A stretch of 64,000 nucleotides of DNA from a virus. Positions 1,100-64,000 of the stretch are shown here, in pieces. The position numbers and the translations under genes are program-made. Where the stretch lies: IMG/VR virus record IMGVR_UViG_3300042904_000196, positions 1-64,000 of that record; one strand, 5' to 3'. Position 1 is the stretch's first letter; every line of letters begins with the position of its first letter. The notes beneath the pieces are model-generated. The model saw only the letters and a program-made list of their open reading frames with translations. It was not told the origin of the DNA and ran no database searches.

Positions 1100-1606
1100 A
1101 TGCTAATAACGCTTGATCTGGTAGCAATGACCGCTCTAAGAAAAGAACTCACCCGTCTTTCAACGGCTGGTGGTGTTCTGCTCAAGGAGCAGGCGTCTGT
1201 TGACTATCAAAAGACTCAGGACTTCATGGCTATCTTGCTTAAAGTCAACGATATGGCACGAACCCTGATTCCGCAACCAGCAATGGAAGGGGTAGCTTTT
1301 AAGGTTACACTTACTGCTAATGCTACGGATGGCTTGCCTACGGCCATCAAAATGAGAACCGAGTTTTCGGGACGACCTGACTTTTTGCTCGAAGCAAGCC
1401 TACCGGAGGGAGCACCAAGTAGAGGTCTGTGTGAAGACTTTGTTTTGCGTGGCATCGCTGCTGCTTACCCGGCATTCAATATTGCTGACGTTAATCAGGA
1501 CGGTATTGTAGACGCACTCGATTTGAATATTGTGGTGTCACATTGGCAAGAAGGCACTGTGGACCCCGCCAACACTCTGGTTCTGATTCCGGAATCAACG
1601 TCATGA
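1100..1606 (+). CDS. hypothetical virion-module protein with a C-terminal dockerin/EF-hand-like loop
   Basis: ATG at 1100 follows GGAG just after the upstream stop. DVNQDGIVDALDLNIVVSHW matches the DxNxDGxVDxxD Ca-binding dockerin-type loop. Confidence 0.6.
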   Translation: MLITLDLVAMTALRKELTRLSTAGGVLLKEQASVDYQKTQDFMAILLKVNDMARTLIPQPAMEGVAFKVTLTANATDGLPTAIKMRTEFSGRPDFLLEASLPEGAPSRGLCEDFVLRGIAAAYPAFNIADVNQDGIVDALDLNIVVSHWQEGTVDPANTLVLIPESTS

Positions 1607-1693
1607 TTATTGTCGTGTCTGTCGGTGTCCCTCTGTCCTATGCACTTTCTATTGCAAGGATTGGTGACACCCTGCGTCTTTTGGAAGGTGTCT

Positions 1694-1996
1694 ATGAATG
1701 CTAAGCAATATGGCACGATTTCTGATGCCTACAGAATCGTAGCCATCACGGTAACAACGACCGCCACCACGCTAATCAGTTTGCTGAGAACTGCCTCGGC
1801 ACAATTTGCGTTGGGACGTATCGTTAAGGTTAGGCTGAACCCTGCGGCCGGTGTCAGCATCGGCGATGGTCACAATAGTGCTTTCATGCTTTTTAGCACA
1901 GCACTTACCATCGAGTCGCTTGGTGTCGAAGAAGTTTTGCTGAAGTGTGCTGCGGGTACTGTTGTCGTTAATGTCGAAATCTTCACTCAGGAGTAA
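1694..1996 (+). CDS. hypothetical virion-module protein
   Basis: ATG at 1694 preceded by GGAAGG, in frame with ORF 1610..1996. Confidence 0.6.
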   Translation: MNAKQYGTISDAYRIVAITVTTTATTLISLLRTASAQFALGRIVKVRLNPAAGVSIGDGHNSAFMLFSTALTIESLGVEEVLLKCAAGTVVVNVEIFTQE

Positions 1997-2001
1997 TTTG
2001 A

Positions 2002-2418
2002 ATGGCTGCTTTTACGAAATTCCAGAAGTTTGTGGAAGACCTTGCTGAAAAGGTCCACAACCTTGGCTCCGATACGTTGACGGTTGCTCTTTGTGCTGCC
2101 GCCAACGCTCCCGTTGCCACGAACAGCGTGCTGACTGACCTGACTCAGATCAGCTACACGAATCTTTCGTCCCGTGCTTTGACGATTGCAAGCTCGGCCC
2201 ACACTACGGGCACCTATAAGCTGACGGTCAACGATCTGACCCTTACGGCTTCGGGTGGTGCGGTTGCTACGTTCAGGTATGTGGTCATTTATAATGACAC
2301 GGCTGCCAGTGACCAGTTGATCTGTTTCTTCGATCTTGGCCAAGACATCACGTTGGCGAACGGCGAAAGCATTACACTTGACTTTGACGGCTCGGCAGGC
2401 TTACTTACTCTGGCTTAA
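2002..2418 (+). CDS. small virion structural protein (beta-rich)
   Basis: AGGAG RBS; Ala/Thr-rich beta-type sequence (KVHNLGSDTLTVAL...RYVVIYNDT...ITLANGESITLDF); sits before a fibre-like gene. Confidence 0.65.
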   Translation: MAAFTKFQKFVEDLAEKVHNLGSDTLTVALCAAANAPVATNSVLTDLTQISYTNLSSRALTIASSAHTTGTYKLTVNDLTLTASGGAVATFRYVVIYNDTAASDQLICFFDLGQDITLANGESITLDFDGSAGLLTLA

Positions 2419-2468
2419 TCAGAGGGGCCGCCCTAGGCCCCTTTTGATTCTAGAATCAGGAGTAAGCT

Positions 2469-21295: not shown

Positions 21296-23841
21296 TGCGT
21301 TGCCTATGCAGGTACATTTTGGCTACAAACTGTGATGGACCCGGTAGTCCGCCAACAGTCTATGTAACACTCAAAGCCCTTGAGGGTATTGTTACGGAGA
21401 AGTGGTTCGGCCTTCAAACGAAGGATGGATTCTGGTGCTACAGCATCGATCCTTCCGATCCTTCGGTATGCGAAACACCGGCCAATGCTGTAATCATTCG
21501 GACCTTAGGAAGTGTTACGCTGTATGACGACTGTGACTGTGCTCTCGGTGATCCCCATGCTTACCCTCGCGGGTATGTGATACCGGGACAGAAAACAGGC
21601 GATCCGATTTTAGGTGGTACGGGCGGTACCCCGGTTCCGGGAAACACTGGAAACGATGGAACCGGGGTGCCTGCACTGGGTATTGAAGGTACACCTTGCG
21701 ATGATACCTTGGACAATCCCCCGGAAGTGTGGGGTGTCATCCTTGGAACGACCACAGGATCGGTGGTCTACAGGGTTGGTCGTTGGTGTTACTCGTTTGA
21801 CTTAACCGATACGCCGACGACGATCCCCGGAACGGCCATGAAAATCTGGCTCACCAACAACGATCAGACATGTGAAGAATGTGTTTTCGGTATCCCGGTC
21901 GAGTATTGCGGACGTGGCGGAGCAAGCAATGTCCCGCTCTTTGTTCACATTCCCGACGCACCTGCAACGGAAATGTTCTTTGTCTATAACGGGGCCTGTG
22001 TCCGGTTTGATCCGGACCGGGCTCCCGAGGTTGTACCCGCTACGGGTCGCTTTGTGACTCCGAGGGACGAGTACACCGATTGTGAGGATTGTGATTCCGG
22101 AATCATTTCGACTCCTTGCTCAGGCCAAGATAGTAACTATCCTAAGCTATGGGTACGGGAGCCGTATATTCCTTTGGAAGATTGTGTTGACCGGGTTAGT
22201 GGTTACTTAATGCATTTTAATGCCGAGGGTACACGGGTTGCAAAACCCGCTAACTATGTCGATTACATTCCCCGAAGAGACTTTGAGACATGCGACGATG
22301 CTCGTTGCGGTGTAAAACGCAAAGGCAAAGGGAAGCAGTGGTACATCTGTCCGACGTTTGCAGGTAAGGAATACGTTAAGAATTTTTGGTCCATCGAGGA
22401 AGATATTCCTGATTTGGATACAGCGTATTTCAGGGTCATTAACAACGTCCCTTACTACATGCCTGCCGGACCCTTGCACGAGTTGCCGAATGATGCCAGA
22501 ATCATTGCGGTGATTGCAGAGTACGAAGATTGTATTGAAGCCATCGACGACGGGAGTAACTTTCCAACCGATCCTGATGACGATGATGATAATGATAGAC
22601 CTGACGACGATCAGGACGGTGATCCTGATGCCGATGAAGACGAGGATGAAGATGGTACACCGGATGGGCCTCCCGGTGGTCCGGGTACCGGCGGTGAAAA
22701 CAACGGCGGTGAAGACGATTCTGATGATGGCAATGAAACGCCTAATTCGTATTGTCAAGAACATAAGATAGCGTGCTACAATAAAACACGCGATTGTTTC
22801 GATGGAAGTATCCTCAATTGCAGGATGCCAAACATCAAACGTGGTTCCGTTGCACACCTGAACAACGATGAATGTTTTGAATCCATTGCCCATAACGGTG
22901 ATCTGTTGCCGAGTTGCTTCGATGCCGGGCAACCACTTGAGGGCCTCGCGGTTGCTTATACGGCTTCGTCGTGTACATCGTGCAAGCCACCCAAGAGGTG
23001 CTATACGTCGTGGAGGTTCCAGTGTGACCCGCCCACCATGACGTACCTTGCAACATACTGTAGCGATAGTGACCTTAGCACAGACTGGGTTCCAGATGGC
23101 GACGATTTCATTAAGTTCGTTCAGGGTGGAGTATGTAACTTAACGTCGCATTGTCAGACACCTTCGTCTGATCCGCCTTTGGCTCCGCCTGCGAACCCGA
23201 CACATCTGTGCCCGAAAGATTGCTATGTGCAGTGGAAGTACGATTGCCAAACTGAGGCCATAACGGTTGTCAGCAAAACGTGCACGGCAACAGATTTGAC
23301 TAGTGACTGGACCCTCGTAGGTGAACACTTCTACAAGACCGTAAAGGGTGCAACGTGCAGCGTTGACGGAGACTGTGTCGATGGCACGACTCCGAGTCCG
23401 CCTGTTTCGGTTGTCGGGTGTGCAAACTGTGCATGTCCGGGTGCGGTGTTCATGGAAGACATTACGATCAGCCCGGATGGATCGGTTGAATACTTCAATG
23501 GTGGTGCCCCGCTACCTGCGGGCAATTATCGATTGTGTTATTTGAGCGGTGGTTACTTTCATACGCCCTCAGGTGAATATACCCTTGGCGATGAAACTGA
23601 TTTTGAAACAACCTCAGCGTTCTTCCCTGCGGCTGGTACGCGAAGCTGGGGCGGTAGTTTCGGCAGTAACCACGCATCGATGGCTGCTCTTGAAGCCTAT
23701 CACCGTGACCCGGCTAACATACCGTGTGAATGTTTCGTTGGAGATGATTCCGGAATCGGTTATATGCAGTTTGTTTTGGCCAATGGCGATTATGCAGACT
23801 ACTCAGGTACCTGCGTGTTCAGATTGTGGAGTTGCGACTAA
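21295..23841 (+). CDS. large Cys-rich repeat protein with an acidic linker (possible receptor-binding/virion protein)
   Basis: TAATG coupling at 21293-21297; repeated CxxC-ending modules; DPDDDDDNDRPDDDQDGDPDADEDEDEDG linker. Confidence 0.7.
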   Translation: MRCLCRYILATNCDGPGSPPTVYVTLKALEGIVTEKWFGLQTKDGFWCYSIDPSDPSVCETPANAVIIRTLGSVTLYDDCDCALGDPHAYPRGYVIPGQKTGDPILGGTGGTPVPGNTGNDGTGVPALGIEGTPCDDTLDNPPEVWGVILGTTTGSVVYRVGRWCYSFDLTDTPTTIPGTAMKIWLTNNDQTCEECVFGIPVEYCGRGGASNVPLFVHIPDAPATEMFFVYNGACVRFDPDRAPEVVPATGRFVTPRDEYTDCEDCDSGIISTPCSGQDSNYPKLWVREPYIPLEDCVDRVSGYLMHFNAEGTRVAKPANYVDYIPRRDFETCDDARCGVKRKGKGKQWYICPTFAGKEYVKNFWSIEEDIPDLDTAYFRVINNVPYYMPAGPLHELPNDARIIAVIAEYEDCIEAIDDGSNFPTDPDDDDDNDRPDDDQDGDPDADEDEDEDGTPDGPPGGPGTGGENNGGEDDSDDGNETPNSYCQEHKIACYNKTRDCFDGSILNCRMPNIKRGSVAHLNNDECFESIAHNGDLLPSCFDAGQPLEGLAVAYTASSCTSCKPPKRCYTSWRFQCDPPTMTYLATYCSDSDLSTDWVPDGDDFIKFVQGGVCNLTSHCQTPSSDPPLAPPANPTHLCPKDCYVQWKYDCQTEAITVVSKTCTATDLTSDWTLVGEHFYKTVKGATCSVDGDCVDGTTPSPPVSVVGCANCACPGAVFMEDITISPDGSVEYFNGGAPLPAGNYRLCYLSGGYFHTPSGEYTLGDETDFETTSAFFPAAGTRSWGGSFGSNHASMAALEAYHRDPANIPCECFVGDDSGIGYMQFVLANGDYADYSGTCVFRLWSCD

Positions 23842-26251: not shown

Positions 26252-26795
26252 TCTGCTTCAAAATTTCCATAAGGTTGTTGTAAAGATCACGCAGCGTACC
26301 ATTATTCTTGACAATGAAATCCCAAGGTGCATCCTCAGGAATTTCATGGTCCACACTTAGTCCTGTTCTTAGGGGAGCGGAATCCCTGTCAATGCGTATC
26401 AAAACGCCCTTGCGTTGCTTGACAGTGTTGAACTCTTCCATGAAACGGGTGTCACTGAACAGGATGATTCCGGAATCATTTAGCCCATGGAGAGCAGACC
26501 GGGCAAATGTCTCCGTATGAATTTGTCTACAGTGGTGCGTACCGAAGACGATCCAGAGTTCAACGACATTCATGTTGAGTGCTGGGATAATCTTTTTCCG
26601 TTCCTCGGGGTTCTTCTCATAGTAGTCAGCACTCTGAACACCGGCCCAACCATACAGCTTGTGGCAAGCATCCTTCAAAGGTGATGCCCATGCTGTCTTG
26701 ATACTGGGGATGTTCTTGGAACGGAAGTACGTGAGAAGCAATTCACACGCGGCGTCTTTGCCGGTGCGACTTCGTTGTCCGAAAGCAATAATCAT
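26232..26795 (-). CDS. deoxynucleoside monophosphate kinase
   Basis: GQRSRTGKD P-loop, WASPLKDA, SDTRFMEE motifs. Confidence 0.8.
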   Translation of the reverse strand: MIIAFGQRSRTGKDAACELLLTYFRSKNIPSIKTAWASPLKDACHKLYGWAGVQSADYYEKNPEERKKIIPALNMNVVELWIVFGTHHCRQIHTETFARSALHGLNDSGIILFSDTRFMEEFNTVKQRKGVLIRIDRDSAPLRTGLSVDHEIPEDAPWDFIVKNNGTLRDLYNNLMEILKQIGHYHG

Positions 26796-27241: not shown

Positions 27242-27404
27242 TTTGTTCCTCTTTGATTCTGAAATCATTATTGAGTTTTGGAATGTTGACCCCGATGAAC
27301 TTACCGGGCTCGTATTCAATATAACGCATATTACCAAGCTCAAGGGCGTACATAAGAATTTTCTTGTCGCCGTCTTTCAGAGATTTGAGAATTTCTCTTA
27401 ACAT
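27192..27404 (-). CDS. hypothetical protein
   Basis: TAATG-coupled to the primase stop (MLREILK...). Confidence 0.5.
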   Translation of the reverse strand: MLREILKSLKDGDKKILMYALELGNMRYIEYEPGKFIGVNIPKLNNDFRIKEEQNGWSIGTLREATNGNG

Positions 27405-30100
27405 TATTCTGCACCCGGACGCAGCCAACCCAACTTATCGACAACCCAAGGCTTGCCAGCAGGAGTCTCTGCTTTGAAGCTTATGTTGCCGATGTAGTTT
27501 TGGCCTCCATCGAAGGTCGCCTTACCGTAGGGGTATTGTGGCGGTAAGGATTCCTTAATCTTTTTGCGGGTCCATGCCGGTACGTCTTCCGGTTCAAGGG
27601 TAAGCACAAAGCGTTCTGAAAATTCCAAGAACGAGATACTAGCTCCCTTGATTGGGAAACAGTTTTCATCAATAAAGCGTTCAAGCTCTGTCCTGTTGCC
27701 TGCTTGAACCTGAAACTTCATATCGGACATGATAACAGGCAAATTCAATCTATCATTGCTCTTGGGCAACTCTAATCGTAACAAGTCGGCCAAAAGGTCC
27801 GGGGCTTCCTTTTCAAGGAGAGGAAAAAGGTCTTTCTTAGGAATCAAATTGAGCATATCCAGTGGAGGCACATGCAACATCGTTATCCGGGTGTCGCCGG
27901 GGAAGATTGGACAGTACCGGTGGTCATTCGCACATTGCACCCAGTGGGTACAATTGGGAACATGAAAGGGGGCCTGATACATGTGTCTAACGTTGAGATG
28001 CTTACTGGTGACCCAGTCTTTGATTCGGTTGTAAGCAACCTTATTTCCCTGAAGGTCGGTTTCTTCAACAACACATAGGACCGCATGTTGCAACTCTCCG
28101 TTGAAGCCGCTTGAATTCGTAAGAGCCAAGTCCGCACGCTGATATCCACTTGTGACGAGAAGTGCAATAGCTTCGTGAAAAGATGACTTTCCAGTATTTT
28201 GCTCGCCATAGAAAAAGAGATATGGGAGCGGTTCAAGAGGTTCTTTGAGAAGTGAAGCGAGCCAACATTTAAGATAATCCGCTCCGGTGGCAAGTCCGTT
28301 AGCTTGGCACCAAGGGTGAGATTTGATTGCGGAATCAATTGACTGTCCGCAATGCTGAAAGATACGGGACCATGTGGGGTAGGAGTAACTGTCTTTACCC
28401 ACAGAAGGGAGGAAGCGTAACTGAGCTGCGTTTCGATTCCATTTTCTATCTCCGGGGTACTCGGGTTGAAAAGGCCGATTAACGAGTTGCCAGCAACGCA
28501 TAACGGAAGCACCGAGAATATCCTTAATTTGCCCGGCGTCTTTTCCCATGTAGTTGAGGGCATCCTTAACATTGTCTTTAGACTCGTTATGCCATTCTCC
28601 GGTTTTATTGAGATACCATCCAAAGTCTTCTCCTTTTTCGGTAACCACGTGACGGAGCAAGTCGTCGGTATTTTCTACCTCGGACTCGGTACTCGGGGTG
28701 ACACTCATACGTTCTATACGTGACCAAAAACCTTTCTTCTCAAGGTAGCCTTCCATCTCTGATGGGGCATCCTTGTCGGAGGCTTCGATCTTAAAAATCA
28801 AACGGCCATCTTTGTGCTGGCTCAACATAGCGGATCGGTGTTCCAACTTTTTGGGATAGGGAATCTTGACGCCTAGGGCTTTAGCGGCTTGCTCGGCTTT
28901 GGTGACGGAGGGGAACACAAAATTGCCCTTTTCATCCTCGACGCCTGAAAACGATCTGCAAGCGGTTCGGAAGTCGGGGTCAACATTATAAAGACACCGG
29001 GTCCATCCAGAAGTGTCCTGATCCCATGTGGTAGCTTCGGCCACACCACGAGTATGACGCCGGATTGACCATCCGCCCTTACGCAACGGGAAAGCGAAAC
29101 AGTTCTGGTCTGATCCTCGCTCGGTTCCTTGGGCAAGGGTGTCAAAGATTCCTCGCAAGCCGAGTTCACTGTGTGCCCGCTTGAGGTCGGCTGTATGACA
29201 GACGAGCATGTTCCGGTCACTGTCCCACCAGAAAAGGCAGTTTTCTTTTTGAAGCCAGACAATAAGAGCCTTATGTTCTTCATCGCGTTGGAGAATCGTT
29301 TGCTGACCACAGACAAGATCAAAGTCAGTCACCTCTTTATCATTTGATTCCGGCATCAAAGATGTCGTTGCACGCTTACGCTTATTGGTAACAACGCCAA
29401 TATGGTCTTTCCAGTTAAGCGGAACCTGCGTCAAAGGGACGCCTTCCTTAATAACTTTCAGACCTTCGGGGTTGTTCAGCATCTTGCGATGCCACACCCA
29501 CATATTGCCGCCGCACGTATCCACCTTAGCGAGGAAGTCGTAGCCCGTTAAAGCGCTCAGGTGCCCCAAAATTGATCGGGCAAGGGCTGCGTGCTCAGTG
29601 TGATTACTCGTTGGTACAGGAGGATCGAGGGTGACATATAGATGTAGCCCTTTACCACCTGTAGATCGTCTGACCGTGATCCATGGAATTGATGTGACGG
29701 CAGACTGAACGGCACCCAATTCTTCCGTGGTGAGCTTTTTCTCGTGTTTGTCAGAATGGCCTGTAATAGCGTCGAAGTCGTAAGCCACCCAACGGGAAGC
29801 GCGTTCTCGCCAATTCCAGCCAGTGAGTCCGATACCTTCAACATGCTTCTCCAAATCGAATTTGATTTCGGAATCAGTATACTCAGGTTCGCTGGCCGCG
29901 TTCCAAGGGATTCTGAAAGCCTTCCACGTGGTGAGCCCGTCAGAGTATCCCCGCCACACGCGGCCATTAAATTCACCTGTGACCATTTCTCCGTTATCTT
30001 GTGCGACATTCACCTGACATTCCATACCTAGATTGTATGCGTCTGCCAACGGTGAATAGTGTTTCAGGAAGCGTTGTACAGCTTCACTACGTGTAGGCAT
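27404..30100 (-). CDS. primase-helicase (AEP/Prim-Pol N-terminus plus SF3-type NTPase)
   Basis: YDFDA and RSTGGKGLHLY (AEP motifs); GEQNTGKS Walker A; CVVEE Walker B; QCAN motif C. Confidence 0.85.
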   Translation of the reverse strand: MPTRSEAVQRFLKHYSPLADAYNLGMECQVNVAQDNGEMVTGEFNGRVWRGYSDGLTTWKAFRIPWNAASEPEYTDSEIKFDLEKHVEGIGLTGWNWRERASRWVAYDFDAITGHSDKHEKKLTTEELGAVQSAVTSIPWITVRRSTGGKGLHLYVTLDPPVPTSNHTEHAALARSILGHLSALTGYDFLAKVDTCGGNMWVWHRKMLNNPEGLKVIKEGVPLTQVPLNWKDHIGVVTNKRKRATTSLMPESNDKEVTDFDLVCGQQTILQRDEEHKALIVWLQKENCLFWWDSDRNMLVCHTADLKRAHSELGLRGIFDTLAQGTERGSDQNCFAFPLRKGGWSIRRHTRGVAEATTWDQDTSGWTRCLYNVDPDFRTACRSFSGVEDEKGNFVFPSVTKAEQAAKALGVKIPYPKKLEHRSAMLSQHKDGRLIFKIEASDKDAPSEMEGYLEKKGFWSRIERMSVTPSTESEVENTDDLLRHVVTEKGEDFGWYLNKTGEWHNESKDNVKDALNYMGKDAGQIKDILGASVMRCWQLVNRPFQPEYPGDRKWNRNAAQLRFLPSVGKDSYSYPTWSRIFQHCGQSIDSAIKSHPWCQANGLATGADYLKCWLASLLKEPLEPLPYLFFYGEQNTGKSSFHEAIALLVTSGYQRADLALTNSSGFNGELQHAVLCVVEETDLQGNKVAYNRIKDWVTSKHLNVRHMYQAPFHVPNCTHWVQCANDHRYCPIFPGDTRITMLHVPPLDMLNLIPKKDLFPLLEKEAPDLLADLLRLELPKSNDRLNLPVIMSDMKFQVQAGNRTELERFIDENCFPIKGASISFLEFSERFVLTLEPEDVPAWTRKKIKESLPPQYPYGKATFDGGQNYIGNISFKAETPAGKPWVVDKLGWLRPGAE

Positions 30101-37815: not shown

Positions 37816-38655
37816 ATGAGCAACGCTACTATCGCCACCATGAACATTCCTATCGCCGATATTGACATCGACGATAATTTCAATTGCCGCGGTAAGCTGC
37901 TTCCGATTGATGTCGAGGAGCTTGCGAAAGACATTCAGGCGAATGGGCAACATCAGCCTGTTGTCGTGATGCCTTACAATGAGTCCGAGAAGCTTATCAA
38001 AGGCAAGAGTTACAAACTCCTTGCGGGCTTCCGGCGTACCTACGCTCATATCATTCTGAAGTTGCCGACCGTGTTGGCAGTTGTCAAGAATCACATGAGT
38101 GATATCGAAGCACGCCTATTGAATTTGTCTGAAAATCTGAAGCGTGAAGACCTGAACATTCTCCAAGAGGCCAAAGCTCTTGAAGCGCTTATGTATGCTG
38201 GCGTACCCCGTGAAGAGGTCGCCCGTAGGGTAGGTAAATCGGGCGGCTGGGTTCAGGCACGCTGGGCATTGCTCACGCTTCCCAAGGATATTCAGGATGT
38301 TGCGGCTGCCGGTCTGCTTAATCAGTATCAACTGAAGCGGTTAGCAGGTATCCGCAAGCCCGAGGAACTGTATGCTACGGTGAAGCAGATTAAGACACGG
38401 CTTGCCAATGCACAGAGCTTGAACATCATCCAACGTAAGCCGCCCAAGAAACACGAGAAAAAGAAACGCACGACGACCGAGATTGCGAACATGCGTAACT
38501 ATATCTTGGACAACATCGGTTCTAATCCTTATTCTCGTGCTTTGGCGTGGGCTGCCGGTGGCACCTCCGACAAGGAACTGGAAGACGCTATCCGTGAAAC
38601 GCATCCGGCATTTGTGATTCCGGAACCAAAAGAGGTCGAACTAACCCACGAGTAA
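37816..38655 (+). CDS. parB: ParB/Spo0J-family protein 2
   Basis: ELAKDIQANGQHQPVVV...LLAGFRR...NLSENLKREDLNILQEAKAL; HTH REEVARRVGKSGGWVQARWALLTL. Confidence 0.88.
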   Translation: MSNATIATMNIPIADIDIDDNFNCRGKLLPIDVEELAKDIQANGQHQPVVVMPYNESEKLIKGKSYKLLAGFRRTYAHIILKLPTVLAVVKNHMSDIEARLLNLSENLKREDLNILQEAKALEALMYAGVPREEVARRVGKSGGWVQARWALLTLPKDIQDVAAAGLLNQYQLKRLAGIRKPEELYATVKQIKTRLANAQSLNIIQRKPPKKHEKKKRTTTEIANMRNYILDNIGSNPYSRALAWAAGGTSDKELEDAIRETHPAFVIPEPKEVELTHE

Positions 38656-38663: not shown

Positions 38664-41018
38664 ATGTTCTATATCGACACTGAGACATGTGGCTTGACTG
38701 GTCCATTAACTCTTTTACAATATGCTGAGAATGATTCCGAAATCAAATTGCATGATGCTTGGAAACAGCCTGTAGGCGATACCGTTGACCTCTTGGATGC
38801 TATTGCTAAGGAAGATGTTTGCGGGTTCAATCTAGCCTTCGATTGGTTCCAAATTAGTAAGCTTCGCAATATCTTCGATATGGTTCCAAGGGACTGGATA
38901 CCTGAAGACCATATCGAGGAAATCGCTTTGCTTGAGCCCGAGGCCCGGACACGCTTATGTATAAAGCCTAAGCGTGCCCTAGATTTGATGCTTGTTGCTC
39001 GTAAGGGCAAGTATCAATCGCTCATGGATCGCAAAGACATCCGTATCCGCAAAGTGCCAACTGTTTTAGCGTATAAGCTGGCCGAGGAACTTGAGAACCG
39101 TATTGAAATTGACGATGTCTACTTTTCACGTAGGAAGGATAAGTTCGCACCTAAGTGGAAAGTCTATGATATCGTTCGCAAGGGAATCATTGATCCTAAT
39201 TTCAAAGACGTTGTTCTCAAATTCGCTGCCTCGGGCTCATTGAAGAATCTAGCTGTTCATGCTGGCATTGCTGATCCTAACTCGCTCTTGCGTTGGGGCG
39301 ATGTTGGCTGTAAAGAATACCCTGTTGAATGTGGCTGGGCACCCTTTGCTTTGGCTATAGGAAAACCCGGCAACTGGAAAGGAGCATGGCCTGATGTTAT
39401 CCGTAAGCATATTAGCTACTGGGCCTACAATCCCATCGGCCGCCGCTACGCCGAAGATGACGTTAAGAATACCCGCGGGCTCTACTATCACCTCGATAAG
39501 CCTGAGCCGGGGGATAATGATTCGGAACTCGCCTGCATGGTCGGTGCTGTGCGGTGGCGAGGGTTCAAGATTAATCTTGAAGGCATCAAAGAGCTTCGAG
39601 CCAACGCCTTCAAGAAATCCCGAACGGCCCCCAAAGATCCCCGACGTGTTTTAGACTACCTTACAGCCGTCATGGATGATACGGAACAGCTTGCCCTCTT
39701 AGGCAGGGATGGTAAAACGTCCACCAAAAAGCCTATGCTTGAGGCTATCTCAAGATGGGAAGATGATTCCGGAATCATTCACCCTGCCGCTGTAAGGGCC
39801 AAGGAGGTTTTGAATGCTCGCGGTGGTAAGAAAGAAGTTGAACTGTACGACAAGCTCTTACAAGCTGGTCGATTCCATGCCAGCTTCGTGGTGATTGGTG
39901 CATTGTCTGGTCGTATGTCCGGCTCCGATGGACTTAATCCTCAAGGAATTAACCATTCCAAAGAGGTTAGACGGATGTTCGACTTAGCCGACGATGATAT
40001 GCAACTCAGTGGTGGTGACTTCGATTCGTTCGAGGTTGTTCTTGCGGAAGCCGTCTACCACGACGAAAATCTGCGTAAGGATCTTACTGAGTGGCACGTA
40101 TGCGAAATGTGTAATGGCAACGGACATGTTGCACCCTACAAGAATAAAAAAGGTAAAGAGTCTACACTTTGCCCTGTTTGTTCCGAGGAAGGAAAACCCA
40201 ATGAATATCTTGGTAAGTACCAGAAAAAGATTCACGCCCTTTTTGCTATGGAGCTATTCCCCGGCAAGACGTATCAGGATATCATGCTTTCCAAGGGCTC
40301 AGATTTCGATATGTACACCAAGGGAAAACAAGGCGTGTTTTCCCAAATCTATGGCGGTGATGAAAACACCATCGAGCAAAAGCTTGGCGTGGACATTGAA
40401 GTCGCGAGGGGTGCTTGTCAACGTTTCCAAGCGAAGTACGAGGGTGTGCGAGTTGCCCGCCTTAGGATTTTCGATATGTTCTGTTCGATGCGACAGCCCA
40501 AGGGTTTGGGAACAGAAATCACTTGGCGTGAACCTTCAGACTATATCGAGTCGATAACCGGTTTCAAGAGGTACTTTACGCTTGAAAACAAAATCTGTCG
40601 GGCACTGTTTGATCTTAGTCAGAAACCTCCTAAGGAGTGGCGAAGCATTCCCTTGAAGGTGGTTCGCCGCGAAAAGATGCAAACAGTTTCCGGTGCTTTG
40701 CAGAGTGCCCTTTATGGTGCTGCGTTCCAGATTCAGGCCGCGAACATGCGTGCAGGTGCCAACCATGAAATCCAAGCTTCAGGGGCTGCCATCACAAAGC
40801 ATGTTCAACGCCGAGTCTGGGACCACCAGCCATATGGCACAGGTAAATGGCTTGTTGTGCCGTTCAATGTCCACGATGAAGTATTGGCTCCTTGCCTTTC
40901 AAGCATCGCTGAAGACATTAAGCGGACTGTTAATGAAACTGTTGAATCTTATCGGGAAAAGGTTCCGCTCATCAAAATGGAGTGGAATACATCACTCCGA
41001 AATTGGGCGGACAAATAA
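38664..41018 (+). CDS. polA: family A DNA polymerase with 3'-5' exonuclease domain
   Basis: IDTETCG, FNLAFD, YAEDD, SGRMSG..LNPQ, GDFDSFEV (motif A), KQGVFSQIYGG (motif B), NVHDEV (motif C). Confidence 0.92.
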   Translation: MFYIDTETCGLTGPLTLLQYAENDSEIKLHDAWKQPVGDTVDLLDAIAKEDVCGFNLAFDWFQISKLRNIFDMVPRDWIPEDHIEEIALLEPEARTRLCIKPKRALDLMLVARKGKYQSLMDRKDIRIRKVPTVLAYKLAEELENRIEIDDVYFSRRKDKFAPKWKVYDIVRKGIIDPNFKDVVLKFAASGSLKNLAVHAGIADPNSLLRWGDVGCKEYPVECGWAPFALAIGKPGNWKGAWPDVIRKHISYWAYNPIGRRYAEDDVKNTRGLYYHLDKPEPGDNDSELACMVGAVRWRGFKINLEGIKELRANAFKKSRTAPKDPRRVLDYLTAVMDDTEQLALLGRDGKTSTKKPMLEAISRWEDDSGIIHPAAVRAKEVLNARGGKKEVELYDKLLQAGRFHASFVVIGALSGRMSGSDGLNPQGINHSKEVRRMFDLADDDMQLSGGDFDSFEVVLAEAVYHDENLRKDLTEWHVCEMCNGNGHVAPYKNKKGKESTLCPVCSEEGKPNEYLGKYQKKIHALFAMELFPGKTYQDIMLSKGSDFDMYTKGKQGVFSQIYGGDENTIEQKLGVDIEVARGACQRFQAKYEGVRVARLRIFDMFCSMRQPKGLGTEITWREPSDYIESITGFKRYFTLENKICRALFDLSQKPPKEWRSIPLKVVRREKMQTVSGALQSALYGAAFQIQAANMRAGANHEIQASGAAITKHVQRRVWDHQPYGTGKWLVVPFNVHDEVLAPCLSSIAEDIKRTVNETVESYREKVPLIKMEWNTSLRNWADK

Positions 41019-42645: not shown

Positions 42646-44594
42646 GTATAAATTGGTCGTTTGTTGAAGATTATCGTAATCGCAGCGTACCGTTCGGGGC
42701 TGTAGGTTATATCACATATAAGCGAACTTACGCTCGTATGACTGATTCCGGAATCACTGAAGAGTGGTGGCAGACCATCTACAGGTGCTTGAGAGGGCTT
42801 GTGGATGATCTGGACATGTACGTCACACAGGAAGACGTTGAGGAAATGTTCTACTACGTTTTCAACCTGAAGCTTTGCTTCTCAGGTAGAGCATTGTGGC
42901 AACTTGGAACAGAAACCGTTCGCAAGGTTGGTGCCGATAGCCTCCAGAATTGTTGGCTGGTGCCGATCAATGAACCCATCAGGCCATTTACGTTCACCAT
43001 GAATCAGCTTATGCTGGGTGGTGGTGTCGGTTTCAATATGACACCTGAGATGGTGTACAGCTTGCCTGTTATACGTTTTGATCCTGAAATCAAACGTGTC
43101 GATGAGGCTGACGTTGATTTCATTGTTCCCGATAACCGCGAAGGCTGGGTTAAGCTTTTGCATATGACGCTTGATGCTCACTATAACACGGGCAAAGGCT
43201 TCACGTACAGTACGATATGTGTCCGCCCCAAAGGGCAACGTATAAGCGGCTTTGGAGGTGTTGCGAGTGGCCCGGAAGAACTTGTCAAAGGTATCCATAA
43301 CATCTCTGCGATCCTTTCTAATCGCCAGAATGAGAAGCTACGACCCATCGATGCGTTGGACATCCAGAACATCATCGGTGGAATCGTCGTCGCAGGAAAT
43401 GTCCGGCGATCAGCCGAAATCGCCATCGGATCACCGCAGGATACTGCGTTCCTGAACTCGAAGGCATGGGGCCGGAAAGGTATGCGAGTACCTAACTGGC
43501 GAGCCATGAGCAATAATACAGTTTCGACCGACGACCTCCGGGAGCTACCTCCAATATTCTGGGAAAATTACACCGAACGTGATGCCAAAGGTGACAGTGT
43601 TTCGGAGTGCTTCGGGTTATTCAATCAATACAACGCTCGACGCTACGGGCGGATCATAGACGGGGAGGATTATCGCCCCGATCCTAGGGTCATTGGTATG
43701 AACCCCTGCGGTGAAATTACTCTTGAGGCATATGAGGCTTGTAATCTTGCAGAGATTTTCTTGCCCAACATTGCCAACGAGGAAGAATTCACCGCGGCTG
43801 CCCGGTTGTGCCTTATGTTCACGAAGACCATCAGCAAATATCCCTTTTCTGATTCCAGAGTCAATGAGGTCGTTTCCAATAACCATCGGCTCGGTATCAG
43901 TGTTACAGGCTTTTTGCAGGCCATGCACCTGAAGAATGAAACCATCTTCAATAATGTGTATCGTTCTCTCGAAGAGTTCGACGAAACATATAGCCGACAG
44001 ATCGGTGTTAAGCGTTCCATCAAAATGACCACCGTTAAGCCTTCAGGCACGCTTAGCCTGTTGCCGGGTGTAACGCCCGGAGTGCATCCCGCATTCGCTA
44101 AGCACTACATTCGGCGTATCCGGTTTGCTTCGGATGATCCTTTGGTAGCCATGTGCGAGTCGCACGGGTTCCCGGCTGAACCAGCCATTAACTACGATGG
44201 TTCTAAGGATTGGACCACCATGGTTGTTTCGTTCGTGGATAAGTCGCCCGCACTAACGGCCCATGAAATTAGTGCCGTGAAACAGCTTGAGTACCAGAAG
44301 TGGCTACAGACGTATTGGGCCGATAACAGTGTTTCCTGTACGGTCTACTTCAAGGATGAGGAATTGCCGGCAATTAGACACTGGCTGGGCAAGAACTATA
44401 ACGAGAACATGAAATCCACCTCCATGCTTCGGCACACAGGCCATGGATTCGTTCAAGCACCGTATGAAGAAATCACCGAAGACACTTACAACGGTATTAA
44501 GGCGGCCACGAAGCCGATCACACGGATCATCGATACGAAACTCCGTGACCTGAATATGGTTGAGTGTGCTGGCGGTGCGTGTCCTATCAAGTAA
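42642..44594 (+). CDS. nrdJ: class II (adenosylcobalamin-dependent) ribonucleotide reductase
   Basis: KRTYAR, SGRALWQLG, QNCW, LMLGGGVG, VAGNVRRSA, NPCGE, TTVKPSGT, C-terminal CAGGACPIK. Confidence 0.92.
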   Translation: MSINWSFVEDYRNRSVPFGAVGYITYKRTYARMTDSGITEEWWQTIYRCLRGLVDDLDMYVTQEDVEEMFYYVFNLKLCFSGRALWQLGTETVRKVGADSLQNCWLVPINEPIRPFTFTMNQLMLGGGVGFNMTPEMVYSLPVIRFDPEIKRVDEADVDFIVPDNREGWVKLLHMTLDAHYNTGKGFTYSTICVRPKGQRISGFGGVASGPEELVKGIHNISAILSNRQNEKLRPIDALDIQNIIGGIVVAGNVRRSAEIAIGSPQDTAFLNSKAWGRKGMRVPNWRAMSNNTVSTDDLRELPPIFWENYTERDAKGDSVSECFGLFNQYNARRYGRIIDGEDYRPDPRVIGMNPCGEITLEAYEACNLAEIFLPNIANEEEFTAAARLCLMFTKTISKYPFSDSRVNEVVSNNHRLGISVTGFLQAMHLKNETIFNNVYRSLEEFDETYSRQIGVKRSIKMTTVKPSGTLSLLPGVTPGVHPAFAKHYIRRIRFASDDPLVAMCESHGFPAEPAINYDGSKDWTTMVVSFVDKSPALTAHEISAVKQLEYQKWLQTYWADNSVSCTVYFKDEELPAIRHWLGKNYNENMKSTSMLRHTGHGFVQAPYEEITEDTYNGIKAATKPITRIIDTKLRDLNMVECAGGACPIK

Positions 44595-44600: not shown

Positions 44601-44636
44601 GGGCCATCTGATTCCGGAATCAGGTGGCCCTTTTTT
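44601..44636 (+). terminator. intrinsic terminator whose stem-loop core is the exact palindrome
   Basis: GGGCCATC-TGATTCCGGAATCA-GGTGGCCC followed by TTTTTT. Confidence 0.8.
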
Positions 44637-45290: not shown

Positions 45291-45663
45291 TTCCGTAATC
45301 AAAGCTATCGGGCATGATGGTTCCGATATCGTCCAACCTGAACTGCCTGAGCCTGATGGCAGGCGTGGCTTCCACCCCCAAGAGCTGATTAAGGCTGCCT
45401 ACGATCATGGGTTCCACATGGTATGGGTTGAAGCCCAGCCAATATTCTTTCATGGTGGAAAGCTGATGCCGGTTAAGGTAGACCACCTGCATAGAGTGTT
45501 TGATAAGACCCGCGGAATCGTGCTCGCTATCCGTGACGGTAAGCGTCACGCCTTTGCCAAGATTGATTCTCGAATCATTAACCCCACATTTGGGAAGGTC
45601 TGGTCGCTTCACGACTGGACCATCGAACACTATCTGTATATGATTCCCGGCATCAAAACGTGA
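45223..45663 (+). CDS. C39-like cysteine peptidase fold protein
   Basis: ATG at 45223: MIQPNRWSCMPTALAILLG...HAFA...IINP (Q-C-H-D/N arrangement). Confidence 0.5.
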   Translation: MIQPNRWSCMPTALAILLGSTFDSVIKAIGHDGSDIVQPELPEPDGRRGFHPQELIKAAYDHGFHMVWVEAQPIFFHGGKLMPVKVDHLHRVFDKTRGIVLAIRDGKRHAFAKIDSRIINPTFGKVWSLHDWTIEHYLYMIPGIKT

Positions 45664-45836
45664 TTTTGCGGAATCGAATCAAATTCGACCATCAAAATAT
45701 TTTGGAAAGTGACTTGCGAAACCATATAGAAGGTGGTAACCTACTGGTGGGGAACGGAGCGGTGATTCGGGAATCAAATTTGATTCGATTCCTGAGTTAT
45801 TCGTTTTGATTCCCGGCATCAATGTTCTTTGACAAT
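45641..45836. promoter_or_regulatory. second control region, bracketed by inverted and direct repeats, with a boxA-like site
   Basis: TGATTCCCGGCATCAA direct repeats (45641, 45807); 16-bp perfect inverted repeat 45670-45685/45777-45792; TGTTCTTTGACAA at 45823-45835. Confidence 0.65.
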
Positions 45837-45859
45837 TGAGAGTAAGATTGGAACCGAAA

Positions 45860-46345
45860 CCTAGCCTAGGCTAGGATAGGGAAGTCCCCCATACCTGTGA
45901 TATGGTGGTAGAATGAGAATGAAAATCGCCGTGACCCGCAAGGTTGATTCCGGAATCATACCGTCGTGATGACGTTAATGAAGTCTGGAAAAGATACGGT
46001 TTGAAGTCATAAGTGCACCATGCAGTGATTGCTGGGAAGCACGCCAGATGGATAACACGTGGTAGCGAAAAGTAAAATGCTTCTATCGAGCCCTTGCACA
46101 GGATTGGAACAGGGATGCAACCTGATTCCGGAATCAACGTTAGTAACAGGTTTCAATCGAGTAACTAATCAAACGTGAAGTAAAGCGGTGTGACATGGCT
46201 TAACGAGCCCCCGGCAAACGCTGCACCCCGAAGGGTGGCACATTGTGATACACGTTTGGCTACCAAGGTAATGAGTAGCCTGAAGATGATGTTACGTTGT
46301 GAGCAACCCGTTGGGTTGTGTGTGGTTTGCAACCACAGATCGCAG
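45860..46345 (+). ncRNA. candidate long structured non-coding RNA (~500 nt)
   Basis: No convincing ORF; nested helices with G-U pairs (46102-46110/46150-46158, 46170-46177/46251-46258, 46185-46191/46218-46224, 46258-46263/46275-46280, 46304-46318, 46321-46337). Confidence 0.5.
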
Positions 46346-46434: not shown

Positions 46435-46460
46435 TTTCCCTCTTTTTAATGGAGATTATT

Positions 46461-50959: not shown

Positions 50960-51784
50960 ATGAAATTCGACGCACTATGCAAGGTCGTAGAGAGCAACCA
51001 CCTAGAAAATCAGGAGGGTCTTTTAAGACACACCAAGCTCTTCCTGTTTCCACTGAACAGTAAGCAACTCCCCCAGTCCTACACCCCGGACCAAGTGTCG
51101 CTCTTCGAGGAACAGTTCTTCCTGCCATTCAGGAACGTGACCATCGAAGATGAAACCGGCTGTACAATGCTGATCGATTCCACCGAAAACCAGAGTGGCA
51201 TCGATGGACTACGTTACTTTGTGGATTTTGTTCTCCTAGACAGCAAGACTGATTCCGGAATCAATGACTACGGAATCTGGTCCCTGTGCTTTGGCCGGGT
51301 GAAGGGCTTCAGGATCAGTGATGTGTCCCTCTGGACGCACATCGAAATCGATAGGTGCCTAGGCGGTAGCTTGCGAACGGGTGAAGTGGCCAACATCGAC
51401 AAACATGACGAGGTCATGCAGCAAGCGGCTGTGCGTAACGTGCAAACGGCTTATCAGGAGATTATGTACTTCAACACCCCTGATAGGTTCATCGTACAGT
51501 CAACCCCTCGCAGGGTGCGTGACCCTTTAACAAGCGCCAAGATTCCTCGGGCACAGGACAGGCCCAACTATATTTTGCTTTATCCAAAGCAAATTCGTGA
51601 GCGCTTCGGTATACAGGGGGATGGGGTTAATGCACCGCATCCTGTACGGAGGCACTTTCGTACCCTGAGAAGTGACTATTACACCAACAAACAAGGGCAG
51701 CGTGTCGCTGTCAAAGGATACTGGACCGGAGACACTGAAAAGGTCGTTGACGGTAGGCACTACAAAATTCTTTTAGATAGGTGA
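50960..51784 (+). CDS. hypothetical protein with a C-terminal PHxxRRHxR basic motif
   Basis: ATG at 50960 after GGAG; PHPVRRHFRTL...VKGYWTG. Confidence 0.65.
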   Translation: MKFDALCKVVESNHLENQEGLLRHTKLFLFPLNSKQLPQSYTPDQVSLFEEQFFLPFRNVTIEDETGCTMLIDSTENQSGIDGLRYFVDFVLLDSKTDSGINDYGIWSLCFGRVKGFRISDVSLWTHIEIDRCLGGSLRTGEVANIDKHDEVMQQAAVRNVQTAYQEIMYFNTPDRFIVQSTPRRVRDPLTSAKIPRAQDRPNYILLYPKQIRERFGIQGDGVNAPHPVRRHFRTLRSDYYTNKQGQRVAVKGYWTGDTEKVVDGRHYKILLDR

Positions 51785-51787: not shown

Positions 51788-52432
51788 ATGATTCCGGAAT
51801 CACTTTGGAGAAAACGGGCTGAGGAAGCTGAAGCGGCACTCGCGACGCTGCGGGCGCTGATGCCGGAGGTGCGGAATTTCGTACAGATGGTTTTTGAGTG
51901 GGAAGAGCCTGTCCCGTCAGGTCTTCATGGCTCAGTTTGGAAAAAGAAGTACGGGTGTCATGCGAATGAGCTTGCCGCAAATCTTATAGGCAAAGCCGCC
52001 ACTACACTCCTCGCCAAGCTGCCTGCAGAGGACAAATCGGAGTATGCGACGACTGCGGCTAAATGCCACTCGCACGAACACCCGGCGGGGTGCGGATGCC
52101 ACGATGGGCCGCCAGAGGTCAAGCCCGCGACTGCCGAGCCGAAGCGGGTGCGGGAGTGGCGGTTTGACCATAAAGACTTTTGGGCGGAATACCGATTCGA
52201 TGGCACGCAGGTGTGGTATCAGGAAAGCATAAATCCGATCTGGAAAAAAGTCTTTACAACGATTGAACAAATTGAACAAACGAAATGCTACCGCGAAACC
52301 ACCGTCGCGGGCAACGTGCCGGAGCGGCAGCAATTCGTGGTTGAAGTGTGCGATTCATATGAGCTAGGTGCCTTCCATGTGAAGACATCCATCGGTCCTA
52401 AATGGCTTCGTTTTGTTGCGAGGAAACCATGA
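51788..52432 (+). CDS. hypothetical protein, paralog of 54628..55521
   Basis: Shared FVQMV...GLHGS.WK.KYGC, WAEYR and CYRETT blocks. Confidence 0.65.
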   Translation: MIPESLWRKRAEEAEAALATLRALMPEVRNFVQMVFEWEEPVPSGLHGSVWKKKYGCHANELAANLIGKAATTLLAKLPAEDKSEYATTAAKCHSHEHPAGCGCHDGPPEVKPATAEPKRVREWRFDHKDFWAEYRFDGTQVWYQESINPIWKKVFTTIEQIEQTKCYRETTVAGNVPERQQFVVEVCDSYELGAFHVKTSIGPKWLRFVARKP

Positions 52433-61361: not shown

Positions 61362-61721
61362 ATGGACCCATCACGTGCAAGCCGTGCTTCGGACTATAAG
61401 TGTCTTGAACTCTGGTGCAAGTTTTTGGGCTCACAGGGCTACTACATTCAACAGGAGCAGGAGCGGGCAGCCCGCGACGGGGCTCCCTTGAATGCCATTT
61501 ACAAGCAGGGTGAGGCTTGGGTAACAACGTTTGACTGTATCAATTTTGATTTGGCCCGTCGTATCGAAGACAAGGCTAAGATCGTTGTGCCCCCTAAGCT
61601 TAAAATACTTAGGGATGAGTATACCTATCGCGAGAAGCTTCTCGCTAAGGAACATGCTGATAGTATAAGGGCCTTGGGCCAGTTCTTTGAAAATTACCTG
61701 AAGGAGGCGTTAAGTGAGTAA
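61362..61721 (+). CDS. hypothetical protein
   Basis: AGGAGG RBS. Confidence 0.5.
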   Translation: MDPSRASRASDYKCLELWCKFLGSQGYYIQQEQERAARDGAPLNAIYKQGEAWVTTFDCINFDLARRIEDKAKIVVPPKLKILRDEYTYREKLLAKEHADSIRALGQFFENYLKEALSE

Positions 61722-62754
61722 GCGTGATTTTGTGATGCTTGCAAAGGCATACAGCGAAGATAAGCACAACGTGTTCAAGTGGCTCATGTCCGAGAAACTG
61801 GATGGGTTACGTGCCATATGGGACGGGGGAATATCGGCAGGGAAGAGCCTACTTGAGGTGCCTTACAGCAACAAGAGCATGATCCATCGCTTCGCTCAAA
61901 CACCTATTTGTACGGGGCTCTGGTCGAGGTACGGTAACGTTATCCATGCTCCCAAGGATTGGGTAGCTACGCTGCCCAAGGGGATATTCTTGGACGGTGA
62001 GCTTTACATGGGTCCGGGCAAGTTTCAGGAAACCAGTTCGATAACACGATCCTTCGAGGCTGACTGGACTAAGGTAGAGTATCGGGTCTTTGACAGTCCA
62101 CCACCTGAATTGATTCTGGAATCAGGTGTCATTCGGAGCAATGGTGGCGGAGCCTTTACGGTGCCACCTGCGGCCTTGCCTTGGGCTTTAGAAAGGGGCG
62201 TGAAACGTCTGTTTGCAATAGGTGCTCCGTTTCTGGAAAGGCTTAGTGTGCTCAAAGGCTTGGTCAAGGTGCATGAGCAGACCATCGTGGATAACAACGT
62301 GGATGCCTTCATGGAGCAGGTTTTGCTCAGTGGGGGTGAAGGTGTCATTTTTAAATCGAACAGCCCCTACGTCTGTAAGCGTTCCGATAGGATGCTGAAG
62401 TACAAGCCCTTCTCTGACGACGAGGGAACGGTCAGCGGGTACACGACCGGGCGTGAAACCGAGAGGGGCAGTAAGCTGCTCGGTATGATGGGTTCCTTGG
62501 AGGTACTCTGGAAAGGTAAGGTGTTTGAAATCAGTGGCTTTACGGAGGCTGAACGCTCGTTGCGGACGGTGGGCGACAAAGATGGTGTTAAGGCCCTTTC
62601 GTGGGCTATGGAGAATCCCGAGAGCAAGGTGCCTGACTGGATCGAGGCAAGCGAATTCCCTAGGGGATCGCGGGTGACATTTACCTATCGGGAACTGTCC
62701 GATGATGGTATACCCAAGGAGGCAAGGTATCTGCGTAAGCGTGATAGCGAGTAA
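61714..62754 (+). CDS. ATP-dependent DNA ligase
   Basis: SEKLDGLRA (motif I), LDGELY, VFD, GEGVIFK, LKYKP, TFTYRELS...P...RY. Confidence 0.9.
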   Translation: MSKRDFVMLAKAYSEDKHNVFKWLMSEKLDGLRAIWDGGISAGKSLLEVPYSNKSMIHRFAQTPICTGLWSRYGNVIHAPKDWVATLPKGIFLDGELYMGPGKFQETSSITRSFEADWTKVEYRVFDSPPPELILESGVIRSNGGGAFTVPPAALPWALERGVKRLFAIGAPFLERLSVLKGLVKVHEQTIVDNNVDAFMEQVLLSGGEGVIFKSNSPYVCKRSDRMLKYKPFSDDEGTVSGYTTGRETERGSKLLGMMGSLEVLWKGKVFEISGFTEAERSLRTVGDKDGVKALSWAMENPESKVPDWIEASEFPRGSRVTFTYRELSDDGIPKEARYLRKRDSE

Positions 62755-62948
62755 CTTATTTATTTTGGAGATAGCATGAAACCTATTTCGATGTTTTTCA
62801 GTGTGCTGGCTGCACTTTGTGTGTTCGGGCTCCTGTGTGTCGGTATCTGGACCTACATGGAAGAGAAGCGCTCTATCCGTGAGGCTCAGAAACAGCAACA
62901 GGAGGCTGTCGATAGACTCTTTTGGTACAACAGAGAGAATCGTAACAG

Positions 62949-63512
62949 ATGAAGAATATGCCATGGTTAGTAATGATAGTGTTAATAGGTATTTTCACTT
63001 CGTGTAAACGGGAACCGGTACCGGTGCCTCAGGACGAGACACCGGTACTTTGTTTGTATGTTAGCGGTTTGGGTGCGGACCACCTTGGGAAGGTGTACGA
63101 CCATCTGGTTCAACGCGAGCCTCTTTGGGGGCACGTTCGGTTCGCTGGTAGGGATAATTATCAGACGGATGTTAGAGACTATGTGCTTAAAAGTAGGCAC
63201 AAGAGGCTGGTAGTGATTTGCCACTCTTGGGGTTCGGCTCGGAGTGTGGAGGATTTGAAAGGGGTACCTGTGGACCTGTTGGTCCTCTACGATCCTGTTG
63301 GCTTCGACCAAGGAGCCTTGGTGGTTCCGGAATCAATCAAGCGAACAATTGTCTTTCCTAGGGAGAGAAACAGGTGGTTGGTTCCTTTTACGGCCCCTAT
63401 ACGGAGCAGCAAGCTGGGTCAAGAGATTGTCACCATAATGCTTCCGGGTGGGCACAGTGATGGTACGCTGAATGAAATGAGCTTTGGTTACATTCAATTG
63501 GAGAATAAATGA
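62949..63512 (+). CDS. lipoprotein-like alpha/beta hydrolase
   Basis: Hydrophobic signal with FTSC; CHSWG nucleophile elbow; LYDPV; GGH. Confidence 0.6.
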   Translation: MKNMPWLVMIVLIGIFTSCKREPVPVPQDETPVLCLYVSGLGADHLGKVYDHLVQREPLWGHVRFAGRDNYQTDVRDYVLKSRHKRLVVICHSWGSARSVEDLKGVPVDLLVLYDPVGFDQGALVVPESIKRTIVFPRERNRWLVPFTAPIRSSKLGQEIVTIMLPGGHSDGTLNEMSFGYIQLENK

Positions 63513-64000
63513 GTTATCTAAGAAAACTGCAAAGAGTCTGTAACGTTACCTACAGGGGTGAGTGGCTCATCAACGGTAAGCCCTTAGCGCATGGGGATAA
63601 TGCTAAGGTGTTTGATGTTGCTGGTATATTGGTGAGTAACCGGGGAGCGGCTCTGGAGTTTTTGAAACAGAAACTCTGCGAGGAAGGGTTAGCCGTCATG
63701 ATACGCTCCGCGGTGCCGTTGGTTTGGGAGGGTGAATGGATCATTGATGGCAAGAAGCTTGAGGATTATAACTTCTGGAACAGGCTCTTTGCTGTAACCG
63801 GTATTCCGGTGCCTCCCTTTCAAACGAGAGACACGATGCTTGCGTGGGTGAAGAGTAGACTGGGCGACTATTATGATACACTCCCCTATGACGAAGTTAC
63901 CATTAAGGTGTTGAGGGAGTTCAAGGTCCCGCAAAGCCTGATTGAAATGAACAATATGTGGAAGACCAAGGAGGGTCAACTGATTCCGGTATCAAAACTG
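63509..64000 (+). CDS. 3'-truncated hypothetical protein
   Basis: ATGA overlap after GGAG (MSYLRKLQRVCNVTYRGEW...); appears to run off the window end. Confidence 0.45.
   Translation, partial: MSYLRKLQRVCNVTYRGEWLINGKPLAHGDNAKVFDVAGILVSNRGAALEFLKQKLCEEGLAVMIRSAVPLVWEGEWIIDGKKLEDYNFWNRLFAVTGIPVPPFQTRDTMLAWVKSRLGDYYDTLPYDEVTIKVLREFKVPQSLIEMNNMWKTKEGQLIPVSKL

Follow-up and report, generated by a model that had tools for sequence, protein, structure and literature searches.

Positions 1–64,000 of the IMG/VR virus record IMGVR_UViG_3300042904_000196, a record of 74,484 bp that is estimated to be 80% complete, carry a 14-bp palindrome, TGATTCCGGAATCA, at a density of approximately one copy per kb, and encode two proteins of the ParB family. 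This stretch of 64,000 nucleotides, the whole of the DNA under analysis, is referred to as the window. Judging from sequence comparison, the dispersed word and the ParB genes are together a lineage trait of a large uncultured phage family. The most economical reading is that the palindrome and the corresponding words of the relatives serve as sites at which the phage's own orphan ParB paralogue or paralogues load or bind. This reading rests on co-occurrence, on the architecture of the sites and on their clustering close to promoters, and we give it a probability of about one half. ParB-family proteins are CTP (cytidine triphosphate) switches of chromosomes and plasmids that act through few to dozens of sites in segregation (ParB), division control (Noc), silencing (KorB) and anti-silencing (VirB). 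A survey of the ParB fold from 2025 noted many orphan phage ParBs and no genome-wide system of sites. In the literature that we searched there was no description of genome-wide ParB sites in a lytic phage, and TGATTCCGGAATCA itself was not found in any relevant context.

Abundance, placement and decay of the palindrome

An earlier reading of the window from its letters alone (hereafter the sequence-only reading) had reported 13 exact copies of the palindrome, and a sequence scan recovers every one of them, none with an assigned strand. They lie at 1584..1597, 22092..22105, 26465..26478, 32758..32771, 36815..36828, 44609..44622, 51250..51263 and 51789..51802, at 30912..30925 (21 bp ahead of the parB1 start codon), within the genes for DNA polymerase (39764..39777) and class II ribonucleotide reductase (42743..42756), and at 45945..45958 and 46123..46136 in the second of two non-coding control regions described below. 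No exact copy arose in 100 dinucleotide shuffles. When up to two mismatches are allowed, the window holds 68 copies against a shuffle mean of 0.18; the 55 additional copies with one or two mismatches span 1266..63994, likewise without strand, in agreement with the dispersed near copies at about one per kb that had been proposed. The entire record holds 16 exact copies and 78 with up to two mismatches, and weak flanking T...A bases extend the word to a 16-bp palindrome. The copies are spaced more evenly than expected by chance (coefficient of variation 0.64), none of 5000 random placements being equally even, and the widest gap is 3.2 kb.

Across the whole record 66 of the 78 copies are wholly intragenic. 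The polymerase, primase, ribonucleotide reductase and ligase genes named as carriers of copies in the sequence-only reading are confirmed, whereas the protein it called the tail tip has no family match. With regard to reading frame, 28 and 36 of the intragenic copies fall in two open frames, and the two copies in the third frame have their first base altered. An unaltered word is barred from frame 0 because its TGA would be a stop codon there, and the earlier statement that the word is read in all three frames has to be narrowed accordingly to two frames for the intact form. Synonymous codon shuffling within genes, a check that the sequence-only reading had itself proposed, leaves approximately 20 near copies (maximum 26) compared with the 78 observed. 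The excess is far above what codon-preserving shuffles give and is therefore no by-product of protein or codon usage, which supports the earlier view that selection on the palindrome acts at the level of DNA.

The imperfect copies always keep G2, seldom change A3 and T4 of each half and vary most at the centre, and the described pattern of well-kept outer arms around a variable centre is in this way borne out. The changes in the central CCGG are chiefly C-to-T at CpG, namely 28 of 36 at position 7 and 10 of 15 at position 6 of the word, a pattern that could be expected from the decay of methylated cytosines. Among the double mismatches, 1 of 23 restores the palindrome. Since compensatory changes are near absent, the half-sites decay independently, as they would in the site of a dimeric protein and unlike those of a selected hairpin. 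Selection for a hairpin or cruciform is ruled out on this count, and the palindrome looks like the target of a dimeric protein, as had been suggested. A second conserved palindrome that could be a candidate for a separate ParB2 site was detected neither in this phage nor in the wider family, and the other repeated 10–12-mers in this phage are protein repeats.

ParB paralogues and the words of the phage family

The parB1 (30946..31908, + strand) and parB2 (37816..38655, + strand) genes, the latter directly upstream of the DNA polymerase gene, each encode the Pfam domains ParB_N and HTH_ParB, with PF02195 and PF17762 above the cut-off in both proteins, and both match Spo0J, ParB, Noc and KorB sequences in the PDB. 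The boxes of ParB2 are canonical (GFRRTYA and ENLKREDL) and its alignment with Thermus Spo0J covers 186 residues. The boxes of ParB1 diverge from the family forms GxxRxxA and ENLxRExL, the first being GLHRWNA and the second position being occupied by ANYHKVDT with no ENLxRE box. An AlphaFold2 model of ParB1 (predicted local distance difference test score, pLDDT, of 83) matches ParB, Noc and KorB structures at E-values of 1e-11 to 1e-8, and its C-terminal end is a 45-residue helix that could be a dimerisation element; the C-terminal ParB domain of Pfam was found in neither protein. The ParA ATPase that is the partner in classical ParABS systems is missing from the 74.5-kb record (estimated to be 80% complete), in which neither AAA_31 nor CbiA has a match. 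These results support the view that ParB1 and ParB2 are true ParB/Noc/KorB-type proteins without a ParA, and the two ParB-family genes lacking a ParA gene reported from the letters alone stand with their domains confirmed. Outside the window, at record positions 66692-68053 (L421:3692-5053), a third gene encodes a ParB_N-like protein of 453 residues, ParB3, with a sub-threshold Pfam match and a ParB-like assignment in PHROG. This gene lies approximately 1.3 kb upstream of that for the gpA-type large terminase, a homologue is present in both relatives that were taken as whole records (G002 and G003), and ParB3 may act in packaging.

The family set was obtained by a profile search with ParB1, which gave 80 viral loci at 38–45% identity with G+C contents from 34% to 59%; ParB homologues at 62–66% identity lie outside the compared loci, and a metagenome scan gave no relative above 45%. 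Single-protein scans of viral contigs returned no relatives. Among the cultured phages of INPHARED there was no DNA match and no polymerase match, and the ParB matches were generic only, below 36% identity. Homologues of ParB1 and ParB2 share contigs. ParB1 is present in 56 of 56 primase relatives with enough flank, the parB2 homologue lies 4–9 kb downstream of parB1 on the same strand in 45 of the 46 loci that reach at least 6 kb beyond parB1, and the primase gene is always divergent from parB1 in the relatives. On the basis of these comparisons, ParB1 is a core gene of this phage family.

Many of the relatives carry a dispersed word of their own, which has the TGAT...ATCA build with a different sequence, is 14 or 15 bp long and is present at 0.3–1.6 copies per kb. 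These words include TGATTTT/AAAATCA, TGATATT-N-AATATCA, TGATATC-N-GATATCA, TTGTTAA-NN-TTAACAA, AGTTTAATTAAACT, GGATGGCGCCATCC and AGATTCA-N-TGAATCT. When 57 unrelated phage loci were taken through the same pipeline as a control set, six or more word copies per locus were found in 4% of them compared with 37% of the family loci, and 19 of 57 family loci score above the control maximum. In a complete relative of 85 kb there are 57 copies of TGAT-N6-ATCA spread genome-wide, against 3 of the reversed control pattern. Across 33 phages 78% of the sites are intragenic, yet their density is three times higher between genes. Many palindromic sites are found on the same replicon as the ParB-family genes, and the co-occurrence of an iterated palindrome with the ParB homologues, which had been raised as a point to be checked, holds in the relatives, where both travel together through a large family. 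In some relatives the half-site alone is enriched (TTGATTAA, TGATTCC, CGGAATC, GATCTTG), in both orientations and without strand bias. The loci L283, L295, L296, L318 and L327 have a single, unpaired half-site of 7–8 bases at 4–25 times the expectation, and that of L295 and L318/L327 is identical to the half-site of this phage.

Candidate readers of the word

The sites are concentrated shortly ahead of parB1. In 26 of 33 phages at least one is found in the 200 bp upstream of this gene, compared with 9.2 expected from density, and at up to two mismatches an upstream site is found in 17 of 33, compared with 34 of 179 other intergenic gaps; no comparable excess was seen upstream of parB2 in the 33 phages. 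The sites beside parB1 that had been pointed out in the window, with the exact copy at 30912, accordingly have their counterpart in the relatives. The ParBs are also the sole module-conserved proteins found with a Pfam-recognised domain for sequence-specific binding of duplex DNA. There is a resemblance between the half-site TGATTCC and the parS half TGTTTCAC, and the invariant G is common to both (parS from PMC7383237). In the ParB1 tree the long branches (this phage, L338, L331/L332 and L291/L322) coincide with novel words, a coincidence that is suggestive only.

The divergent control region between the primase gene and parB1 (30442..30945, no strand, by sequence inspection) is origin-like. 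It contains a 15-bp variant of the palindrome at 30445-30459, tandem half-site pairs at 30511-30524 and 30551-30564, an inverted pair at approximately 30883-30896, two 18-bp direct repeats (AAATTCGCATTTGTCAAT) and a T17 tract at 30681-30697, and its layout suggests an origin combined with divergent promoters. The second site-rich non-coding region spans 45564..46136 (no strand), with sites at 45564, 45763, 45945 and 46123 and tandem half-sites at 45670 and 45781. Beside the two exact palindromes of this stretch, ARAGORN predicts a tRNA-like gene of undetermined anticodon at 46366-46435.

Several results weigh against ParB as the reader of the word. The distance between motifs follows overall divergence and not the helix-turn-helix (HTH) segment of either ParB (partial rho of approximately 0; Mantel p of 0.17 and 0.07 for the two ParBs), and the phages that share GATTCC (this phage, L295 and L318) have no convergent HTH residues. 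ParB1 lacks the canonical residues of the CTP motifs, and the arginine with which Caulobacter ParB contacts the guanine of parS is absent from both ParB1 and ParB2 (PMC7383237). About half of the relatives have only weak palindromes or single half-sites, and they are therefore a poor fit to classical dimeric parS loading. The co-occurrence with ParB1 is in part by construction, because the relatives were found via ParB1 or its neighbour. Lastly, a scan of IMG/VR found 33 exact copies of TGATTCCGGAATCA in IMGVR_UViG_3300031950_000001, a complete phage of 144,055 bp with terminal repeats, in which no ParB_N and no protein or DNA shared with this phage were detected.

It is conceivable, although we consider it rather unlikely, that another phage protein binds the word, the leading candidate being the C-terminal winged-helix-like segment of the primase-helicase (DUF5906/VapE-like by Pfam; 27404..30100, − strand) or else an unrecognised small regulator. 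The dispersed copies would then be loading sites for a helicase or replisome, or operators, and the ParBs would act elsewhere. The alpha protein of phage P4 binds origin iterons, and in this phage the densest cluster of sites lies in the origin-like region between primase and parB1 with its iteron-like tandem half-sites, direct repeats and T17 tract. The primase equals ParB1 in its universality across the family, and the single half-sites of some relatives would suit a monomeric reader. The C-terminal segment of the primase does vary between phages, but without clear correlation to the word; the segment does not converge among phages that share a half-site, and Pfam detects no DNA-binding domain there. 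Such a binder would moreover provide no target for the three orphan ParB paralogues that are conserved. A sigma factor encoded at 35615-36133 was considered as a reader and rejected, being without counterpart in the relatives.

The word could alternatively be the site of a host protein or a host-type signal (the box of a global regulator, an uptake-type sequence or a nucleoid-protein site) that has accumulated in the phages of that host, which we regard as unlikely. A host factor would explain why the same 14-mer occurs in an unrelated phage without ParB, and the 33 exact copies in a phage of the same G+C content (49.3% against 49.5%) are the best argument for it. In addition, the 15-bp TGATAnn-N-nnTATCA versions of some relatives presumably recall the 7-1-7 Fur box. 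However, spacing and half-site change between fairly close relatives faster than conserved host regulators would, and a regulator of this kind is disfavoured because the word changes from lineage to lineage; the IHF, FNR/CRP, ArgR and Fur boxes presumably misfit the word of this phage in spacing or half-site. A 16-mer scan of one genome for each of 185,579 prokaryote species gave no clustered copies among the matches listed, which are at least approximately 120 scattered single copies, about the chance number, although the host may be unsequenced. An abundance of the word in the host genome, which the sequence-only reading had named as evidence that would speak against its view, has no counterpart among these matches.

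The setting of the word in the 144-kb phage is also different. Its copies are nearly all exact (33 exact and 5 with one mismatch), form the core of a 20–28-bp AT-flanked palindrome and are essentially all intergenic, 5–100 bp ahead of gene starts. The 144-kb phage encodes a small winged-helix protein of its own, and the word there probably functions as an operator or promoter element particular to that phage. Several of the copies are paired, 55–61 bp apart, around small hairpins. An open reading frame of 413 residues in the same genome with a faint HTH_ParB match is not a ParB. In tetranucleotide usage the two phages show a correlation of 0.44, which equals the mean of random phages at similar G+C and gives no support to a shared host. 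The sharing of TGATTCCGGAATCA is most probably a coincidence, because the number of perfect 14-bp palindromes is limited to 4^7 = 16,384, some iterated palindrome is present in about one in eight random phage loci and the tetranucleotide likeness is ordinary. Relatives that lack the ParB genes and keep the motif had been named as one finding that would speak against ParB; the 144-kb phage touches on this case but is not a relative. The two soil metagenome runs in which the phage of the window is present left a 20-kb stretch of the 144-kb phage uncovered, a result that counts neither way.

It is improbable that the word serves a DNA-level process without a dedicated stable binder, be it a target of nicking, modification or recombination, or a cruciform or RNA hairpin: the C-to-T dominance at position 7 of the central CpG (28 of 36 changes) might stem from the decay of methylated cytosines in CCGG, and thymine dioxygenases of phages can be activated by proteins with a ParB fold (PMC13229309), but the near absence of compensatory changes indicates that hairpins are not selected, the AT-rich words of the relatives would give very weak stems, enzyme targets are normally neither enriched nor evenly spaced, and the dioxygenase system is probably inapplicable because no Tet/JBP gene (PF12851) was found in this phage or in two relatives, one of them complete, the control genomes being likewise without a match above the cut-off.

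If the ParBs are the readers, a ParB dimer would recognise the TGAT..ATCA arms via its HTH domains. The sites in the primase/parB1 control region would serve autoregulation and perhaps the marking of an origin, and at the sites elsewhere, approximately one per kb, ParB would be loaded onto the DNA or kept there over its whole length while the phage grows lytically. The phage genome would in this way be compacted, localised, shielded or timed, and not partitioned by means of ParA. The choice of paralogue, a dependence on CTP and spreading along the DNA are each steps that we infer.

Gene content, known systems and biological meaning

The virion genes, which encode a P22-type coat protein, a tape measure protein and a lambda gpA-type terminase, indicate a long-tailed virus. 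The replication module comprises the primase-helicase, a family A polymerase, an SNF2 helicase, class II ribonucleotide reductase, thymidylate synthase, a ligase and a UvrD-type helicase. Directly after parB1 stands a gene for a protein of 214 residues (31989..32633, + strand), conserved in 73 of the 80 relatives and without a family match. Its model is confident (pLDDT 89) and the nearest folds are of the T4/RB69 gp32 type with weak scores, and the protein, with a tentatively assigned gp32-like OB (oligonucleotide-binding) fold, is probably a single-strand DNA-binding protein and thus hardly a promising reader of the word. Elsewhere in the window (2469-5807), a glycine-rich-domain protein of 1112 residues has an internal repeat, in which the 10-mer GAGCCAGCAC recurs approximately every 240 bases.

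As working systems, the nearest analogues are Noc, which acts at dispersed NBS sites, and KorB, which acts at OB operators, both of them ParB-family proteins that use many palindromes for purposes other than partition (PMC7383237, PMC11790492). Noc of Bacillus subtilis, with about 70 NBS sites, is likewise an orphan without ParA that has a dispersed palindrome of 14–16 bp with many intragenic copies, and the profile and model of ParB1 match Noc structures. It differs in that the sites described here are predicted ones, lie on the genome of a virulent-looking phage with two or three paralogues and have a density approximately 50 times higher. KorB of plasmid RK2, which acts at 12 OB operators in global regulation and partition and regulates itself (PMC11790492), is also matched by the ParB1 profile and model and has dispersed palindromes. 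It works together with IncC, which is a ParA, and with the clamp-locking KorA, neither of which was found here, and the sites of this phage are mostly intragenic and not at promoters. Chromosomal ParB and its parS site (TGTTTCAC-GTGAAACA) have the same fold and a similar half-site outline, TG.TTC, and ParB2 keeps the canonical CTP motifs. In contrast, the phage has no ParA, dozens of sites instead of a few near the origin and a half-site one base shorter, and its ParBs are without the arginine that reads the parS guanine.

Two phage systems can also be compared. Cluster O mycobacteriophages carry more than 30 copies of a 17-bp palindrome, TGTTCGG-N3-CCGAACA, many of them within or between genes (PMC4351075). 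They are likewise non-temperate-looking siphoviruses of approximately 70 kb with a dispersed, dyad-symmetric word and an encoded protein with a ParB-like domain, and the function and binder of the word are given as unknown in PMC4351075. However, gp90 of Corndog has ParB_N only and no HTH_ParB, there is no homology to the present family, and the copies there are invariant, with a larger share intergenic or close to gene starts (24 of 34 in Corndog). The stoperators of Cluster A mycobacteriophages, to the extent that PMC4351075 cites them, are dozens of repressor sites through a phage genome, some of them intragenic; as cited there they are asymmetric, follow the direction of transcription and are the targets of the immunity repressor of temperate phages. 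The sites described here are palindromic or orientation-free, and the 74.5-kb record contains no tyrosine integrase.

The ParB set is a conserved core of the replication module in a phage family without ParA or integrase, and 50–100 sites per genome have been pushed into coding sequence in these phages at visible cost to the proteins. Were ParB not the reader, the family would pose a problem akin to that of the unexplained repeats of Cluster O mycobacteriophages. Were the ParB reading true, this would be the first lytic virus with a genome-wide ParB switch, and a small and tractable system with proteins of 279–320 residues and a defined 14-mer, in which hundreds of metagenomic relatives would provide natural specificity variants for studying the evolution of ParB specificity and site spacing. 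More tentatively, virulent siphoviruses of soil and sediment that form a large uncultured family might use two or three orphan ParBs, and loading words placed within their own genes at approximately one per kb, to build a nucleotide-switched protein coat or condensate, a virus-made 'chromatin' that would organise or shield the replicating DNA, with word and reader co-evolving rapidly enough to become lineage-specific.

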